Shown one piece after another: positions 8,273-13,867 of a stretch of DNA of 64,000 nucleotides. Under the pieces are notes generated by a model. The model searched no databases, was not told the DNA's origin, and saw nothing but the letters and a program-made list of their open reading frames with translations. Position numbers and translations under genes: made by a program. Positions within the stretch are counted from its first letter, which is position 1, and each line of letters begins with the position of its first letter. Source of the DNA: Escherichia coli (GTDB lineage: Bacteria; Pseudomonadota; Gammaproteobacteria; Enterobacterales; Enterobacteriaceae); the NCBI RefSeq assembly GCF_044324785.1, contig NZ_CP172127.1; one strand, 5' to 3'.

Positions 8273-8293
8273 AAAAAAGCCCGCAGCGCGGGC
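8273..8293 (-). terminator. rho-independent terminator of the 8921-8293 cassette
   Basis: Minus strand reads GCCCGC-GCT-GCGGGC followed by TTTTTT. Confidence 0.75.
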
Positions 8294-8733
8294 TATTCTT
8301 CTTCATCATTAAAAAGCGGATTGTTGTTTCCATCTGATGAAAGGAAAGGTATGTGTTCTCTTGAAAATCCAACAATGACAATTTCATTATCATTTTTTGC
8401 ATAATGAATGCATTCATTAGAATGCCTTCCGCCAGGGTTGAAATTTAAGTTAATGGTATAATTCTTAAATGTGTTTGGATACCATGTTGGCCCACAATGA
8501 TAATGCCAATAATTCTCTTGCTCATAATTGTCTGAGCCGGGAATTTTATCATGGTTATCATCAACCCACGAGGGCTTGTTTTTTCCAACAAGCGCCCTTC
8601 CATTGGCAACATCCTCTAAAAAACTTTGTATGATTTTTATTTCATCATCAGTAAGGAAAGGTCCGTCTACAGCGAAAGGGGTGTTGCTTTCCCCATGTAG
8701 AAAACTATTAGATATTCTAATGTTAAACTTCAA
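8293..8733 (-). CDS. hypothetical cytoplasmic protein, 146 aa, AT-rich; possibly YafO-like toxin fold (weak)
   Basis: No in-frame ATG is available downstream of the track start, which overlaps the 8754-8921 gene in another frame. TTG at 8733 is preceded by AGGAG with a 6 nt spacer. Motifs YWHYHCGP and SNECIHY..IVIVGFSREH resemble the HxHL and SDxxLVY...aH layout I recall for YafO. Acidic tail NDEEE. Confidence 0.5.
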   Translation of the reverse strand: MKFNIRISNSFLHGESNTPFAVDGPFLTDDEIKIIQSFLEDVANGRALVGKNKPSWVDDNHDKIPGSDNYEQENYWHYHCGPTWYPNTFKNYTINLNFNPGGRHSNECIHYAKNDNEIVIVGFSREHIPFLSSDGNNNPLFNDEEE

Positions 8734-8753
8734 GGAAAACTCCTGATGTGCTT

Positions 8754-8921
8754 CTATTTGGAGCGAAATGCCGCCTTGAAGTCGCTGAAAGATGTTCCTG
8801 TCTGGTAAACCATATCCTTGTCGCGCTCTTTGCTTGCGCGGCCAAGCATAACTTTTCCAATGACATCCCAGCATTGCTTGGCTTGTTCATTGTGCTGAGT
8901 ACGATTTTTCAACGCTGTCAT
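8754..8921 (-). CDS. small basic protein, 55 aa, first gene of the cassette (candidate regulator or antitoxin)
   Basis: Perfect SD AAGGAGG lies 6 nt upstream of ATG 8921. TAG stop lies 20 nt before the downstream TTG start. Missed by the ORF track (under 60 aa). Confidence 0.5.
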   Translation of the reverse strand: MTALKNRTQHNEQAKQCWDVIGKVMLGRASKERDKDMVYQTGTSFSDFKAAFRSK

Positions 8922-8933
8922 ATCGCGCCTCCT

Positions 8934-8948
8934 TTACCTTTAAGGTAA
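8934..8948 (-). promoter_or_regulatory. inverted repeat O1 (TTACC-TTTAA-GGTAA) abutting a -10-like hexamer
   Basis: Minus strand reads TTGCAG-17nt-TACTAT, then TACTATTACCTTAAAGGTAA, followed directly by the SD of the 55-aa gene. Confidence 0.4.
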
Positions 8949-9020: not shown

Positions 9021-9713
9021 TCAGAAGAACCCTGCTTTGTCGTTGATGTACTCCGCGTGCGTCTGGATATCACGCAGGCATTTGCTCACACCGACGATGT
9101 AGCAGAACATGGTGGTCAGCTCCGCCGCCGCGCCCGATACGTCGTGCCCGTCTTCCTGTAACTGGTTCAGCAGATTCATCAGCAGTGAGTTCTCCGTCAG
9201 GCCGAGAACACCAGACGGCGAATGAATCAGGCTGCGGTAGCCGGGCTTCAGCGGGGCGCTGTAGGTTTTGTTCTCTATCTTCATCGCCTGCATTACTGCT
9301 GACGCCGTGGCGTTGGCTACCTGGTCGGCAACCATCTTTATGCGTTCTTCCTGCGGGAGCGAGTTTTTAATGTAACTTCCGGTGCGACGGATCTGAGGAA
9401 GAACCTCACCTGTAACCCATTCAAGAAATCTGAATGCTCTCGTTCCCTCTGTCATTGCCTCTTTGCAACGCAGAATAAGGATGTAGAGACCTGATTCTGA
9501 AACGATGGATAGTTCTTGTATTCCACCAGGGGTCTGTATTGAATACAGCCCCTTTTTGTTCCAGCCTTTTTTATCAAGTTTTCTCGCTTGTGTAACATCA
9601 ATATTCAAAGCATTGCACACATCTTTGGTGACAAACCAAGGTTCTCCGTCAATCATGAACATACGGATCTGGCAGGATGACTCAAAGGAAAAGATGGAAG
9701 GTTTGGTATTCAT
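9021..9713 (-). CDS. Bro-N domain antirepressor (Ant-like), 230 aa
   Basis: ATG at 9713 has AGGTGA upstream. The N-terminus FSFESSCQIRMFMIDGEPWFVTKDVCNALNI is the classic Bro-N signature. The C-terminal ~65 aa are paralogous to the product of 10024-10281. Confidence 0.8.
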   Translation of the reverse strand: MNTKPSIFSFESSCQIRMFMIDGEPWFVTKDVCNALNIDVTQARKLDKKGWNKKGLYSIQTPGGIQELSIVSESGLYILILRCKEAMTEGTRAFRFLEWVTGEVLPQIRRTGSYIKNSLPQEERIKMVADQVANATASAVMQAMKIENKTYSAPLKPGYRSLIHSPSGVLGLTENSLLMNLLNQLQEDGHDVSGAAAELTTMFCYIVGVSKCLRDIQTHAEYINDKAGFF

Positions 9714-9739
9714 GGCGATCACCTTTGTAGTTAGGTTAA

Positions 9740-9790
9740 TCACCACCGCTGAGACCAATCAGATGGTGGTGAACTGTGCAGAGTTGGTCT
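9740..9790 (-). promoter_or_regulatory. ant leader hairpin (hexaloop GACCAA/UUGGUC) plus adjacent complementary box; potential pseudoknot
   Basis: 8 bp stem 9740-9747/9765-9772 and 4 bp stem 9749-9752/9759-9762 close a hexaloop at 9753-9758. TTGGTCT at 9784-9790 is complementary to the loop plus one closing nucleotide. Confidence 0.4.
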
Positions 9791-9861
9791 TACCGGCTAC
9801 AAAGGAACCCGGCGCACCTTTCGGTGCCCCCACACAGCCCACCATAGAATAGGTGCGCTTT

Positions 9862-9893
9862 ACACATAAAAAAACCGCTTATGCGGCATATGT
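9862..9893 (-). terminator. terminator-like element inside the spacer
   Basis: Minus strand reads CACATATGCCGCATAAGCGGTTTTTTTATGTG. A short GCCGC/GCGGT stem with a U7 run is flanked by CACATA/TATGTG. Confidence 0.35.
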
Positions 9894-9900
9894 GCCTCTG

Positions 9901-9954
9901 TAGTAATCCGGGAGACCAATCCCGGCACTGGATTTTGCCAGTGCCTGATTACTA
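9901..9954 (-). ncRNA. candidate structured RNA: 54 nt three-way junction
   Basis: Closing stem TAGTAATC/GATTACTA (8 bp). Arm 1: 5 bp CGGGA/TCCCG with hexaloop GACCAA. Arm 2: 8 bp GGCACTGG/CCAGTGCC. All pairs are Watson-Crick. Strand assigned from context only. Confidence 0.35.
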
Positions 9955-9964
9955 TGGCACAAGA

Positions 9965-10005
9965 GGAGTGCTTATATTTACCGCAAAGGTAAATATAAGC
10001 ACTCC
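9965..10005. repeat. perfect 18 bp inverted repeat (5 nt spacer) whose centre is O3 (TTACC-GCAAA-GGTAA)
   Basis: GGAGTGCTTATATTTACC-GCAAA-GGTAAATATAAGCACTCC, lying 19 nt downstream of the stop of the 85-aa gene. Confidence 0.8.
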
Positions 10006-10020
10006 AGTTGGTAATTACAA
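9992..10020 (-). promoter_or_regulatory. candidate sigma70 promoter reading into the structured spacer and ant
   Basis: Minus strand reads TTGTAA-17nt-TATATT, with the -10 directly abutting O3 (TATATTTACCTTTGCGGTAA). Confidence 0.35.
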
Positions 10021-10023
10021 ACC

Positions 10024-10281
10024 TTATCTGGTTTGTTTTCGTAATTGTTCGGCACAATAGTCTAGATGTGTTTGCAGATCCTGCATAGACATCTGTGAGC
10101 TGGTGACGTAGTTAATCAGTGCAGTCAGTTCGGCAAGTGGGCCATCGACATTAAATCCATCCTTATCGAGATCCCGGAGTAATTTCATCAAGTGCGATCC
10201 CTCCACCAGTGACCTGACGCCTCCCGGCGTGTGAATCCTTTCGGTAAATCCGTCTTCCAGTGGATAGTGATACTGCTGCAT
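10024..10281 (-). CDS. small protein (85 aa) paralogous to the Ant C-terminal domain; candidate SOS-induced antirepressor
   Basis: ATG at 10281 has GGAG upstream (the track start at 10299 is TTG). About 45 percent identity by eye over about 62 aa with the Ant C-terminus (IHxPxGV..L.E.S.LM.LL..L..DG..V.G..AELT...Y......D.QTH..Y). Confidence 0.65.
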   Translation of the reverse strand: MQQYHYPLEDGFTERIHTPGGVRSLVEGSHLMKLLRDLDKDGFNVDGPLAELTALINYVTSSQMSMQDLQTHLDYCAEQLRKQTR

Positions 10282-10300
10282 CTTATCTTCTCCATGCAAT

Positions 10301-10320
10301 AACTGTATAAATATACAGTA
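10301..10320. promoter_or_regulatory. LexA (SOS) box
   Basis: AACTGTATAAATATACAGTA against consensus TACTGTATATATATACAGTA (18/20, CTG-N10-CAG intact). It lies 20 nt upstream of ATG 10281 and falls in the spacer of TTGATA-17-TATTGC on the minus strand. Confidence 0.8.
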
Positions 10321-10357
10321 TCAAATAATTTGTTTGCTATCCAGCACGTTTTGCAAA

Positions 10358-10372
10358 TCACCTGAAAGGTAA
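10358..10372 (-). promoter_or_regulatory. inverted repeat O2 (minus strand TTACC-TTTCA-GGTGA) abutting a -10-like hexamer
   Basis: Minus strand reads TAGATA-17nt-GATATT, with GATATTACCTTTCAGGTGA. On the plus strand the same site lies in the spacer of TTGCAA-16-TATCTT, which faces the tailspike gene. Confidence 0.35.
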
Positions 10373-10476
10373 TATCTTTTCGTATTTATGGATTATCTAT
10401 CCATATGTGGTTTTTCAGGTAATAGAATAACCAGATATGCGGCGCAACGGGTGCTGCGACTATCTGGAGATTTAAC

Positions 10477-13233
10477 ATGACGGTCTCAACCGAAGTTGAC
10501 CACAACGAATACACCGGTAACGGCGCTACGACATCATTTCCGTATACCTTCCGTATTTTCAAAAAATCCGACCTGGTTGTTCAGGTGTCTGACCTGAACG
10601 GGAACGTAACAGAATTGGTTCTGGATACCGGTTATACGGTAACTGGGGCGGGCACTTATAGTGGCGGTTCTGTTGTTCTTCCGTCGCCGCTTGCTGCTGG
10701 ATGGCGAATTACGATAGATCGTGTGCTTGATGTAGTGCAGGAGACAGACCTTCGCAATCAGGGAAAATTTTTCCCCGAAGTGCATGAAGATGCTTTTGAC
10801 TACCTGACGATGCTGATCCAGCAATGTTTTGGGTGGTTCAGACGTGCATTGATGAAACCATCTTTGCTTGCAAAATATTACGATGCAAAGCAAAACAGAA
10901 TTTCTAACCTTGCAGATCCATCACTTGAGCAGGATGCTGTAAATAATCGCTCAATGCGTAATTATGTTGATGCTGCAATCGCCGGAGTTGTTGGTGGTTT
11001 TGGTTGGTTTATTCAGTATGGTTCTGGAGCAGTATACCGAACGTTCCAGGATAAGATGCGGGATAACGTTAACGCTCTTGATTTTGTTCCGTTTGAGCAA
11101 AGATATGCTGCATTAAATTTTGAAGTTGATGCGTCTGAATGGTTAATTAATGCGATAAATTCTGGTGCAAGTGTCGTTAGAATACCTGCAGGTAAATGGA
11201 TGATTTCTAAGAACATAGATGTGCCTCCTGGAGTGTCATTAATTGGTGATGGCATTGATTATTGGGATACATATAGACCAGCGCCTGAAAGATTATTAAA
11301 AAGTTGGAGTAAAGGAACCCATCTTGTATTTACTGGTGATGGAGAAAAAAACAAATATTTTTTTAACATCTCTAATGAAAGACCAGTTAAAATTGTTGAA
11401 GGGATATCTTGTAAGTTCACTGAGTTTACAAATGAAGATTCTGTAGGTGTTACTCCTGCTACACCAAAAGCCATGAGCGTAGCTGTTAGTATCAACAGGG
11501 CATCACAGTTACGCAACCTGAGAATAATGGTAAGTAAAAATGGTATTGAAGGATACAATAACCCTGATTCTTATTCATTGGGTGATGACTGGGATATAGG
11601 GTTGCATGTATACGATAGCTGTGATTCAGTTATTGATAACGTACAGATTGTCGGCTATTGGAGGGTAAAAGGACTACTACTGACAGAAAATGACGGGAGC
11701 CTTTCAATGAAGGGAAATCCTGAAAAAACGCACTTTAATAACGTTTATGTCCAGTCAGGGATCGCGATAAGGAATAGCCCTCAGATTGATCTTGTAAGTA
11801 ATACTGAAAGCTCAGTGACATTTAAACATAAAAAGTCGATGAGAATAACTTCAGTTAAACAGTTTAAAATTGCTGGCAGTGAATTAGTATATACGTATTC
11901 AGATGCATCATTTGATGGAACTAACATCACACTATCTGGTATTTCTCCTGAAATACAAGGTACAATAAGTGTAATCAGGTTTCCGTCAATTGGTAATAAT
12001 TTTAGCGGGACTGTTTTTGAGAATACAGTAGCCACTACTCTTGATCATACATCAGGTAAGCCATCAGAATACTTTGGCCTTCCTGCATCCTTTGCATTAG
12101 AGGTTGATGGTTTCCCTGTTCGTAATTTAAGGTTTGATAAATTCAAAGCTCAAACAACATTTGATAAAGGAAATTGCATTTTTGGTGATTGCCGTGATGT
12201 TAAAATAACATCATCTGAGTTTGAAAATGGAATTATGATTGCGTATAACCTGACCGAGACTCAGGGTTATACAGGAAATCTTAGATTTTTTGCTTCTGAT
12301 CTTCAGAGCAGCGTTAACACAAGTGAGTTTAAACCAAGAGACGCATTTGTAGACAATAGACAAATAAAAACGGAGTTTACTGATGGTTCGTTCATTATAA
12401 AGAACTGGAGGCCTACAGATACAAAAATACAATGGTCGTCTGGAGCAGATGCTATTGTTCTTAGAGAGTCACCTGACGAACAATCAAACGGAAATATTTA
12501 CGGGCATCACATTGATGGTAAAAGATGGATTAATGTTAGTGGATATAACAAAGATATAAATATTTCATCAAGAAACTTAAGCGTAAAAAACCATGGTGAT
12601 GACTCTGCAGTTATTAATATATTCGGCGACTCTGGAAATATTGCCATTAAAGGTAATTTTTCACCAATTATTGATAACAGCAAATCTCTTGGTGCACCAT
12701 CATTTAGATGGGCACAGGTTTATTCTGCGAACGGTTCGATAAACACATCAGATGGTAGAGAAAAAAGTGAACCGATTAGTACAAGTGAGCTCAGCTTGTA
12801 TATGTCTCGTGGTTATGAAGGTGATGCAATTCTGGATGCATGGGGAGATATCAGGATTGTAGCTTTTCGCTGGCTTGATGCCGTCAGGGAAAAGGGAGAT
12901 GGTGCCCGCTGGCATTTTGGTGTTATAGCACAACAAGTGAGAGACGCTTTCCTCGCGCATGGGATTGATGGAACCAGATTTGGCCTTCTCTGTTACGATG
13001 AATGGGATGATAAATACGCGCCAGTGATGGCGGTAAGGATGATCACTAAAGTTGTGGATGGCGTCGAAATTGAGATGGAAGAAGAATACGAAACAGAAGA
13101 GCGAACTCTGGTTTGCAAGGCTGGAAATAGGTGGGGTATCCGTACTGACCAGTGTTTATGGCTTGAGTCAGCTTATTTGCGTAGAAGAATCGAAAAAATA
13201 GAATCACGTCTTGCAATGCTTGAAAGTAGCTAA
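10477..13233 (+). CDS. tailspike (918 aa): conserved N-terminal adaptor, AT-rich beta-helix-like receptor-binding core, C-terminal S74 intramolecular chaperone
   Basis: GGAG lies 8 nt upstream. N-terminus as in epsilon15-type tailspikes (recollection). Repetitive N/G/S/V-rich core. The C-terminus has the SDGREK cleavage-type motif and a WHFGVIAQQV...FGLLCYDEWD block typical of peptidase S74 chaperone domains. Confidence 0.85.
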   Translation: MTVSTEVDHNEYTGNGATTSFPYTFRIFKKSDLVVQVSDLNGNVTELVLDTGYTVTGAGTYSGGSVVLPSPLAAGWRITIDRVLDVVQETDLRNQGKFFPEVHEDAFDYLTMLIQQCFGWFRRALMKPSLLAKYYDAKQNRISNLADPSLEQDAVNNRSMRNYVDAAIAGVVGGFGWFIQYGSGAVYRTFQDKMRDNVNALDFVPFEQRYAALNFEVDASEWLINAINSGASVVRIPAGKWMISKNIDVPPGVSLIGDGIDYWDTYRPAPERLLKSWSKGTHLVFTGDGEKNKYFFNISNERPVKIVEGISCKFTEFTNEDSVGVTPATPKAMSVAVSINRASQLRNLRIMVSKNGIEGYNNPDSYSLGDDWDIGLHVYDSCDSVIDNVQIVGYWRVKGLLLTENDGSLSMKGNPEKTHFNNVYVQSGIAIRNSPQIDLVSNTESSVTFKHKKSMRITSVKQFKIAGSELVYTYSDASFDGTNITLSGISPEIQGTISVIRFPSIGNNFSGTVFENTVATTLDHTSGKPSEYFGLPASFALEVDGFPVRNLRFDKFKAQTTFDKGNCIFGDCRDVKITSSEFENGIMIAYNLTETQGYTGNLRFFASDLQSSVNTSEFKPRDAFVDNRQIKTEFTDGSFIIKNWRPTDTKIQWSSGADAIVLRESPDEQSNGNIYGHHIDGKRWINVSGYNKDINISSRNLSVKNHGDDSAVINIFGDSGNIAIKGNFSPIIDNSKSLGAPSFRWAQVYSANGSINTSDGREKSEPISTSELSLYMSRGYEGDAILDAWGDIRIVAFRWLDAVREKGDGARWHFGVIAQQVRDAFLAHGIDGTRFGLLCYDEWDDKYAPVMAVRMITKVVDGVEIEMEEEYETEERTLVCKAGNRWGIRTDQCLWLESAYLRRRIEKIESRLAMLESS

Positions 13234-13462: not shown

Positions 13463-13867
13463 ATGTCAGCCCATCTAACTACTGATTCTTTAAATCAATG
13501 GCTTAGTGTGAGCTCTCTTGCTGCAGTTATCGTAGGCGTTCCGCCAGAGGTGGCGCTCGGTGCTCTTGCTGGTGCGGTAATTTTTGTTACCTCTGCGGTA
13601 GAGTACCCAATTCATCGTCGCGTACTCTTATCGATGCTTAGCTTTCTCTGTGGACTTCTTTTCTACAAACCAGCAGCATCAATTCTTATCGGCATAGCCA
13701 GCCTGATCCCTACCATCACGCAGGACTCTTTTGAAAAAGGGATTGTTTTCTCTGCTGGCGCATTCGTGTCAGCAATTGTCGCTGTGCGTATTGGTATATG
13801 GCTCTACCACCGTTCAGACAATCCACGCGATTTAATTCCGGGGAGAAAAGACGATGGTAACGCATGA
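13463..13867 (+). CDS. holin-like membrane protein (134 aa, about 4 TM)
   Basis: First gene of the lysis cassette and strongly hydrophobic. The start is uncertain (GTG 13454 or ATG 13463; neither has a good SD). Confidence 0.5.
   Translation: MSAHLTTDSLNQWLSVSSLAAVIVGVPPEVALGALAGAVIFVTSAVEYPIHRRVLLSMLSFLCGLLFYKPAASILIGIASLIPTITQDSFEKGIVFSAGAFVSAIVAVRIGIWLYHRSDNPRDLIPGRKDDGNA

Follow-up and report, generated by a model that had tools for sequence, protein, structure and literature searches.

C4- and IsrK-family RNAs upstream of the BRO-N anti-repressor gene of an epsilon15-group prophage in Escherichia coli

In the immI region of phage P1, as annotated in GenBank, the promoter P1c4/P51b (-10 TATAGT) is followed by the target sites a1 and b1, the 77-nucleotide (nt) c4 RNA, a second pair of target sites, a2 and b2, and the genes icd and ant; in the P1 sequence, the c4 segment a' forms the single-stranded joint 3' of hairpin 3, and the segment b' the loop of that hairpin. 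The c4 RNA of P1 and P7, reportedly described as an antisense RNA repressor by Citron and Schuster in 1990, acts in trans, and in P1 its repression of icd translation causes polarity on ant. In the isrK/orf45(STnc1160)/anrP region of the Salmonella prophage Gifsy-1, short IsrK supplied in trans activates anrP translation 139-fold, and a processed RNA, STnc1160, is found where c4 lies; the authors of that work noted the analogy to seqA/CI of phage P4 (PMC4825925). The term “IsrK-C4 immunity system” of Barquist et al. covers P4, P1, P7 and N15 (PMC3632133). Here we analyse a stretch of 64,000 nt of Escherichia coli DNA (contig NZ_CP172127.1 of assembly GCF_044324785.1, hereafter the window), and within it the 310-nt spacer (minus strand, 10023..9714) that separates ant, the gene of a BRO-N anti-repressor of 230 amino acids (aa), from an 85-aa gene upstream of it. 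We argue that this spacer combines, with high probability, an immI control region of the P1/P7 type with an IsrK-type leader, and is thus a known phage immunity module and no new riboregulator.

The argument begins with family membership. The whole window was scanned against Rfam at the curated gathering thresholds and then permissively. Exactly two matches were above threshold, both of them on the minus strand, in the spacer and covering the full model: the C4 antisense RNA (RF01695) at 9849..9762 (78.6 bits against a threshold of 45, model positions 1-87, E = 1.1e-13) and isrK (RF01394) at 9944..9868 (74.7 bits against a threshold of 50, model positions 1-77). The permissive scan added the family c4-a1b1 (RF03163, “a1, b1 targets of C4”), which reached 38.4 bits, below its threshold of 46.7, over the 5' half of the isrK match. 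Since the leader of P1 itself matches, at full length, both the isrK model (35 bits, E = 4.5e-6) and the c4-a1b1 model (51 bits), the two families describe one leader element. A first-pass annotation of this DNA, made before any database was searched, had taken the spacer for something merely analogous to known families and had proposed a check against C4 and IsrK; that check proved decisive, for the element exceeds both Rfam thresholds at full length and is a bona fide member of both families, ordinary and well preserved. With Rfam E-values of about 1e-13, and with a loop/box complementarity that covaries over dozens of homologues, the helix pattern of the spacer is far beyond chance. The spacer contains no credible open reading frame (ORF), as had been stated: the candidates are a 65-aa TTG ORF, a 59-aa ORF on the plus strand and a 28-codon ORF overlapping c4, all of them implausible, and a coding gene was therefore rejected. 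Identity as a tRNA or tmRNA was rejected as well, ARAGORN having found no such gene in the window; c4 is merely tRNA-like.

The elements follow one another on the minus strand in the order a1-b1-terminator-c4-a2-b2-Shine-Dalgarno (SD), which is the complete P1 layout of a1-b1 / c4(b',a') / a2-b2 (Table 1; site names follow the P1 GenBank annotation). The minimum free energy (MFE) fold of c4 is the Rfam structure, a closing helix around two hairpins (z = -4.5), and alignment to the 77-nt c4 of P1 predicts a mature RNA at about 9765-9843. In the window copy, all four target sites match c4: the b'/b2 duplex consists of 9 perfect pairs (-10.8 kcal/mol), the a duplexes consist of 7 pairs (-8 kcal/mol), and the extended a/b interactions reach -28 to -32 kcal/mol. 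Further c4 targets elsewhere in the window were looked for and rejected, as the 64 kb hold no second pair of a and b sites (the lone 7-mer a site recurs by chance) and the minus-strand RNA of the window holds no second CUACAAAGG.

Every feature that the first-pass annotation had listed is present where it had been placed, and most of them can now be given an identity. The two identical GA-GACCAA-TC loops (9912-9921 and 9751-9760, 161 nt apart) are the target sites a1 and a2, the TTGGTCT box is the single-stranded a' segment of c4, and the U7 element and the GNRA-type (GAAA) hairpin at 9811-9828 are the IsrK terminator and an arm of c4, respectively. Its parse of the spacer as a linear leader has to be given up, since the box and the GNRA-type hairpin belong to one three-helix c4 RNA. 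It had also missed the second pairing set, b'/b1/b2, which is the set that covers the ant SD. On the other hand, its functional suggestions, that ant is under RNA control through short loop-target pairings and that an upstream and a downstream loop compete for one complementary box, agree with our reading.

Covariation among homologues carries the argument beyond the single copy. Homologues were drawn from deposited phages and from IMG/VR contigs, the latter selected by leader pattern and by Ant similarity, and a covariance model built for c4 gave 62 copies, 55 of them distinct. Over these 55, 98.7% of the cells of the c4 fold are paired and 21 of its 27 pairs have changed on both sides, as against 29-58% in slid controls. 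The pairing between c4 and its targets was followed across phages and viral contigs in 48 distinct (a', b') combinations, comprising 19 a' and 43 b' sequences, a match being an exact complement of at least 7 nt at the expected place. The cognate complement is kept at a2 in 98% of the combinations, at a1 in 96%, at b2 in 88% and at b1, which lies ~15 nt past a1 in the homologues, in 67%; non-cognate rates are 2-5% (5% for a1, 4% for a2 and 2% for b2). In the homologues examined, the first ORF downstream has an SD-like GGAG/AGG, and b2 sits at this motif or immediately upstream of it. The ORF is 57-81 codons long (the position of icd in P1) in about half of the loci and is an anti-repressor-type gene of ~200-250 aa in the others, the window included, so an icd-like ORF is a feature of P1 and not of the RNA family.

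The specificity of the pairing has evidently changed in nature. One homologue (L047) has a backbone near-identical to that of the window at 9740-9925, on which a1, a' and a2 have switched together, from UUGGUCU/AGACCAA to UUGGCGU/ACGCCAA. Its a2 hairpin shows a compensatory switch in the inner stem, from CUGA/UCAG to CCGA/UCGG. By analogy, this resembles the heteroimmunity of P1 and P7, of which it may be a natural counterpart. Among epsilon15-like prophages of E. coli with near-identical backbones, at least three classes of a' are found. The RNA module itself recurs, 95-99% conserved, in hundreds of genomes of E. coli and also in free phages, phiv142-3 and phiV10 among them.

Table 1. Positions of RNA elements, pairing sites, genes and DNA motifs. 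Coordinates are those of the window, except for the hammerhead matches, which are numbered on their own contigs.
Feature	Coordinates	Strand	Remarks
c4 antisense RNA	9762..9849	minus	RF01695 full-length match, fold, covariation
b' CCUUUGUAG	9797-9805	minus	loop of c4 hairpin 3; complementary to b2 (9/9) and b1
a' AGACCAA	9784-9790	minus	single-stranded 3' joint of c4; complementary to a1 and a2
IsrK-like leader/small RNA	9868..9944	minus	hairpin 1, hairpin 2, linker, Rho-independent terminator; RF01394
IsrK hairpin 1	9925-9944	minus	loop GCAAAAUC
IsrK hairpin 2	9909-9924	minus	carries a1 in its loop
a1 UUGGUCU	9913-9919	minus	loop of IsrK hairpin 2; exact complement of a'
b1 CUACAGAGG	9895-9903	minus	9 base pairs (bp) with b', one G.U, -10.9 kcal/mol
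IsrK terminator hairpin and U7	9874-9887; U7 9868-9874	minus	terminator scan, fold
Outer helix, 9889-9895 with 9862-9868	9862..9895	minus	encloses terminator hairpin and U tract
Putative leader promoter -10, TG-extended TGcCATAGT	9951..9959	minus	predicted transcription start ~9944
Perfect 18-bp palindrome	9965..10005		fold -27.6 kcal/mol, z = -11
a2 hairpin	9740..9772	minus	outer stem CACCACC/GGUGGUG, inner stem CUGA/UCAG, a2 in loop; fold z = -4.0
a2 UUGGUCU	9752-9758	minus	loop of a2 hairpin; 7/7 with a'
b2 CUACAAAGG	9722-9730	minus	overlaps ant SD AAGGUGA (9719-9725); 9/9 with b'
ant AUG	9711-9713	minus	start 9 nt past b2
ant, BRO-N anti-repressor, 230 aa	9021..9713	minus	Pfam Bro-N E = 1.8e-13; PHROG anti-repressor Ant E = 3.5e-51
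85-aa gene (phrog_450)	10024..10281	minus	stand-alone paralogue of Ant C-terminal domain
LexA (SOS) box AACTGTATAAATATACAGTA	10301..10320		20 nt upstream of 85-aa gene; CTGT-N8-ACAG match
TTACC-N5-GGTAA repeats	8934-8948; 9978-9992; 10358-10372 (one mismatch); 13587-13601		match epsilon15 operator motif
Hammerhead matches, contig L008	721-790, 2899-2970	minus	flank isrK-c4 module
Hammerhead matches, contig L010	2177-2269, 4771-4835	plus	flank isrK-c4 module

Measured against the described systems, the locus is closest to immI of P1 and P7. The c4 RNAs are homologous, and so is the TATAGT-type -10 of the putative promoter; the order of this promoter, a1-b1, terminator-like hairpin, c4, a2-b2 and SD is the same; a' lies in the 3' joint, b' in the loop of hairpin 3 and b2 on a ribosome-binding site (RBS); and in both cases specificity switches by co-variation of a or b sites. 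The two differ in that P1 has icd, whereas at the window locus no ORF separates c4 from ant, and it is the SD of ant itself that b2 overlaps. Moreover, the Ant of the window is a BRO-N protein and not Ant1/2 of P1, its operator motif is TTACC-N5-GGTAA of the epsilon15 type and not the C1 operator of P1, and a gene with a LexA box lies upstream. Phage P22 offers a positional analogy, as its immI region (mnt-arc-ant, sar) is likewise an RNA-controlled ant module of a podovirus, with virion injection genes on one side and the tailspike gene on the other. However, sar is encoded in cis and transcribed from the opposite strand, and no arc or mnt homologues were seen at the window locus. Control of the sar type was rejected here: no Rfam family of this type matched in the window even at E <= 10, and a promoter scan found no plus-strand promoter-like site in 9650-10500, so none over the ant start.

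Like Gifsy-1, the locus has a full-length IsrK, made of two hairpins at the 5' end and a terminator, which is directly followed by a c4-like RNA and then by an anti-repressor gene; the short RNA and the read-through mRNA would likewise come from one promoter. The Gifsy-1 data fit a reading by titration of c4. If position 1 of the Rfam isrK model is taken as +1 of IsrK, the activating cis mutations G28A and G31A of Gifsy-1 would fall in what is a1 at the window locus, and C162U and C159U, which suppress them, would fall in a'. Binding to Hfq and activation in trans are known for Gifsy-1 only (PMC4825925). Gifsy-1 is lambdoid, whereas the phage of the window is a podovirus of the epsilon15 group, and in the window the ORF overlapping c4 has only 28 codons and stops before a2, which makes coupling of the orf45 type unlikely. 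This ORF (MVGCVGAPKGAPGSFVAGKTNSAQFTTI; 9758-9845, minus strand) starts at the 5' AUGG of c4 and ends just before a2 with a UGA at 9758-9760, 44 nt ahead of the ant AUG, and thus has no orf45-like coupling geometry; it is the positional analogue of orf45 of Gifsy-1 and probably a by-product of the conserved c4 sequence. The APSE phages of Hamiltonella (LR794151; PMC7313666) also carry isrK and c4 upstream of a BRO-N gene with b2 directly on its SD; they differ in sharing only ~70% nucleotide identity, in having other a' and b' sequences and in lacking a LexA-box paralogue gene upstream. The CI RNA of P4 with seqA/seqC and the CB RNA/antC of N15, likened here by description and not by sequence, are structural homologues of IsrK (seqA) and C4 (CI), the processed small RNA pairing with repeated sites upstream and downstream of itself; P4, however, uses the system to stop the transcription of replication genes prematurely and not to occlude an anti-repressor SD (PMC3632133, PMC4825925).

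The leader is conserved as a structure. Among homologues, pairing reaches 97% in hairpin 1, where 5 of 7 pairs are compensatory, and 90% in hairpin 2, whose G-C stem is near-invariant; the terminator is conserved. The outer helix, which lies outside the Rfam isrK model, is 79% paired, and 6 of its 7 pairs are compensatory. It is possible in the read-through RNA only, a feature that P1 shares. Upstream of hairpin 1, at a distance of 6-7 nt, (C/T)ATAGT is kept in most of 59 homologues, and the -10 of the window aligns with the annotated TATAGT of P1c4/P51b. The place of the -35 (TTTACA) of relatives is occupied in the window by the perfect palindrome. In ~100 relatives (loci L133-L212) the right palindrome arm is imperfect and holds the TTTACA; the perfected version is found in the window and in O157 typing phage 9 only, is 3 nt shorter and has the -35 destroyed. 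As a side observation, these two differ by an inverted loop, TTTGC versus GCAAA, which suggests template switching or loop flipping.

The a2 hairpin, first described as an interrupted helix of 12 bp, likewise stood up: pairing over 53 homologues is 89% (slid controls, 36-66%), and 10 of its 11 pairs show compensatory change. Its 5' strand is the 3'-terminal strand of c4 (CACCACC), and because the last 5 bp overlap, the hairpin excludes the end of c4 helix 1. Just 3' of a2 there is a G-rich strand, GGUGGUGAUU (9737-9746), complementary both to the 3' end of c4 and to the region before the start codon. In the MFE structure of the RNA from c4 to ant, c4 stays folded and a 13-bp hairpin hides the SD and the AUG, with b2 in its loop (region 9708-9746); in that of the full read-through RNA, c4 is unfolded and its a'/b' are paired to a1/b1, the long a2 hairpin is formed and the RBS is largely open. 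Over 46 distinct loci, the duplex of the G-rich strand with the initiation region has a mean energy of -10.6 kcal/mol for cognate partners versus -8.75 +/- 0.34 kcal/mol for permuted ones, and 0 of 20000 permutations gave a mean as low, a statistic that sequence relatedness inflates; shuffled initiation regions average -5.7 kcal/mol.

From these models we tentatively derive a conserved three-way conformational switch, in which GGUGGUGAUU would pair either with the 3' end of c4 or with the ant initiation region; we regard it as possible, though the chances are against it. The modelled structures suggest that such a switch would couple the folding or maturation of c4, and the disruption of c4 by a1/b1, to the opening of the ant RBS. 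It is in neither Rfam model and was not found in the searchable literature, and its direction cannot be read from Gifsy-1, whose gene layout differs. If it is true, the module could serve epsilon15-like prophages as a threshold filter between the SOS-controlled promoter and full production of Ant.

Family membership, folds, complementarity, covariation and the geometry at the SD are results of the present analysis; from P1/P7 and Gifsy-1 we infer, by analogy, processing, action in trans, the sign of regulation and the role of the decoy. The proposed course of events would be as follows. Transcription would proceed from the leader promoter (-10 at 9951-9956) with a start at ~9944, and read-through from the LexA-box promoter of the 85-aa gene may add transcripts. 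Most transcripts would end at the terminator (9868-9887), giving an ~77-nt IsrK-like RNA with a1 and b1, and read-through transcripts would contain c4 (9762-9849), which in P1 is excised as an ~77-nt tRNA-like RNA. The b' segment in the loop of hairpin 3 and the a' segment in the 3' joint would then pair with b2 and a2 of the ant leader; because b2 overlaps the ant SD, ribosome binding and Ant synthesis would, we propose, be blocked, and the prophage repressor would stay active. The a1/b1 copies in the leader and small RNA would be an anti-antisense decoy competing for the same c4 surfaces, such that a burst of leader transcription could titrate c4 and allow ant to be translated, as for IsrK/anrP in Gifsy-1. 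When overexpressed, a Uetakevirus BRO-N anti-repressor promotes lytic growth (PMC9782041).

Several points weigh against this account. Processing by RNase P, the sizes of the RNAs and the sign of regulation would all rest on analogy, and the Rho-polarity step of the P1 mechanism may not apply, because there is no icd-like ORF. The alignments behind the c4 pair counts were fitted to the model, and in the window prophage the output of the leader promoter may be low because the palindrome destroys the -35. Finally, the authors of the Gifsy-1 study interpret their data differently: for them, the region of c4 is an orf45 that is translated, and the effect comes from the mRNA refolding and not from titration of c4 (PMC4825925).

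Of the other explanations that we weighed, one, the model of the first-pass annotation, would make the spacer a purely cis-acting leader, in which the a2 loop and the box form an H-type pseudoknot, or the box pairs with the distal loop, within one mRNA and with no processed RNA acting in trans. The MFE structure of the whole read-through RNA, in which a1/b1 pair in cis with a'/b' and the long a2 hairpin forms, speaks for it, but the box sits in a covarying three-helix RNA homologous to c4 of P1, and the literature on P1/P7 treats c4 as an antisense RNA repressor, its annotated feature being a discrete misc_RNA whose targets lie on the icd-ant mRNA. Although “structure A” of Gifsy-1 is just such a cis pairing, a stable processed RNA, STnc1160, was detected downstream of IsrK in Salmonella (PMC4825925). 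We therefore hold exclusive control in cis to be improbable; cis pairing may coexist with the trans mechanism but does not take its place. Nor do we think it probable that c4 acts mainly via premature transcription termination upstream of or inside ant, be it like the P4 CI RNA, like the CB RNA of N15, which acts by termination, or through Rho polarity as in P1. To be sure, the P4 CI RNA causes premature termination and P4 seqA/CI are structural homologues of IsrK/C4 (PMC4825925, PMC3632133), and the N15 antirepressor is, according to a title cited in PMC3632133, controlled through a small processed RNA. Here, however, b2 lies directly on the ant SD, and a terminator scan found no terminator-like site between c4 and ant. 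Without an ORF upstream, a direct block of translation is the simplest effect to assume, and polarity within ant could follow from it secondarily.

The mechanism published for Gifsy-1 from experiments (PMC4825925) might also be the only one at work, in which case the c4 region would be a structured or translated mRNA segment like orf45, IsrK would activate ant by refolding the mRNA, and released c4 would be no repressor. The 28-codon ORF running from the 5' AUGG of c4 to just before a2 speaks for this. Yet it stops short of ant, which it does not reach, so there is no coupling geometry; the length of such ORFs varies, from 28 codons in the window to 45 in Gifsy-1; conservation tracks base pairs, as the 21 of 27 compensatory pairs attest; and a2/b2 covary with a'/b', which a model of refolding alone does not require. 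In orf45 itself the nucleotide sequence is conserved and the amino-acid sequence is not, according to a passage in a review citing PMC4825925. Taken together, these points make refolding alone unlikely at this locus. Least credible of all, and in our opinion very nearly negligible, is the idea that the RNAs are fossils in a decaying prophage: the window copy has indeed lost the -35 of its leader promoter, but its four target sites still match c4, all of its helices are intact, ant and the 85-aa gene are both open frames, and the 95-99% conservation noted above extends over hundreds of E. coli genomes and the free phages phiv142-3 and phiV10. We thus return to the P1/P7-type control region with an IsrK-type leader as the preferred reading.

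On that reading, a P1-style antisense RNA whose specificity can switch probably controls whether epsilon15-like prophages are induced, and this gate is probably combined with control by LexA and by the phage repressor. The finding leaves the c4/IsrK mechanism as it has been understood since 1990 and 2016; the value of the finding would lie in annotation and in the modelled switch. As to the former, no RNA is annotated in the E. coli and phiV10-group records inspected, where the spacer is a blank between a “hypothetical protein” and a “BRO-N protein”.

Two structural claims of the first-pass annotation did not extend to the family. Its three-way junction at 9901-9954 does fold in the window (MFE -26 kcal/mol, z = -4.6), into one arm of 8 bp, another of 4-5 bp and a stem of 8 bp that closes the junction. 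This closing stem, however, is not conserved: it is 60% paired overall, outside the clade of the window 3.3 of its 8 positions pair, which is chance, and its flanks have a duplex energy of -1.57 kcal/mol for cognate versus -1.47 kcal/mol for non-cognate partners. The -10/discriminator of the leader promoter, which is conserved, makes up the 5' strand of the stem, and transcripts starting at ~9944 would lack this strand. The stem was accordingly rejected as a conserved structure; covariation is seen in the c4 fold, in the hairpins of IsrK and in that of a2, but not there. Pairing of TCACC with the GGUGA of the ant SD is not supported, for it is clade-specific: GGUGA is the SD in the clade of the window only, and other members use GGAG with the same c4 3' strand.

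The genes on either side of the spacer are related to each other. The product of the 85-aa gene is 42% identical to Ant residues 149-222 by BLASTP (E = 6e-16); Pfam gave only a sub-threshold match to DUF724, and it was PHROGs and BLASTP against Ant that were informative. Its homologue in epsilon15, gp19, stands alone without c4 or ant and keeps the LexA box. By count, this box agrees at 18 of 20 positions with the LexA consensus, and is thus near-consensus; it is conserved in epsilon15, in O157 typing phage 9 and across the clade of the window. Together with the paralogy of the 85-aa protein to the C-terminal part of Ant, the box suggests, at the level of sequence, a two-tier, SOS-linked anti-repressor module.

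The centre of the perfect palindrome (9978-9992) reads TTACC-N5-GGTAA, the motif annotated in epsilon15 as the binding site of the lysogeny repressor, which is enriched in the window with 8 matches versus 1.1 expected. Repeats of this kind flank the ant module: one is at the leader promoter, and others precede the LexA-box promoter and a 193-aa gene. This last gene (8293-8874, minus strand; phrog_5954, no Pfam match) lies downstream of ant and has its own operator-like repeat upstream. The window from 1 to ~15387 is a phiV10/phiv142-3-like prophage (Uetakevirus, epsilon15 group); the remaining ~48 kb are presumably E. coli chromosome, because similarity of the phiV10/phiv142-3 type stops at ~15387. 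The end of the prophage with the repressor and the integrase lies outside the window. A 651-nt region with the module is present in 541 of 5426 complete E. coli genomes (~10%), in which the features annotated under the match are a hypothetical protein and the BRO-N protein only.

Lastly, in two metagenomic viral contigs, type II hammerhead ribozyme matches of 52-69 bits (threshold 37) stand on both sides of the isrK-c4 module and on the same strand.

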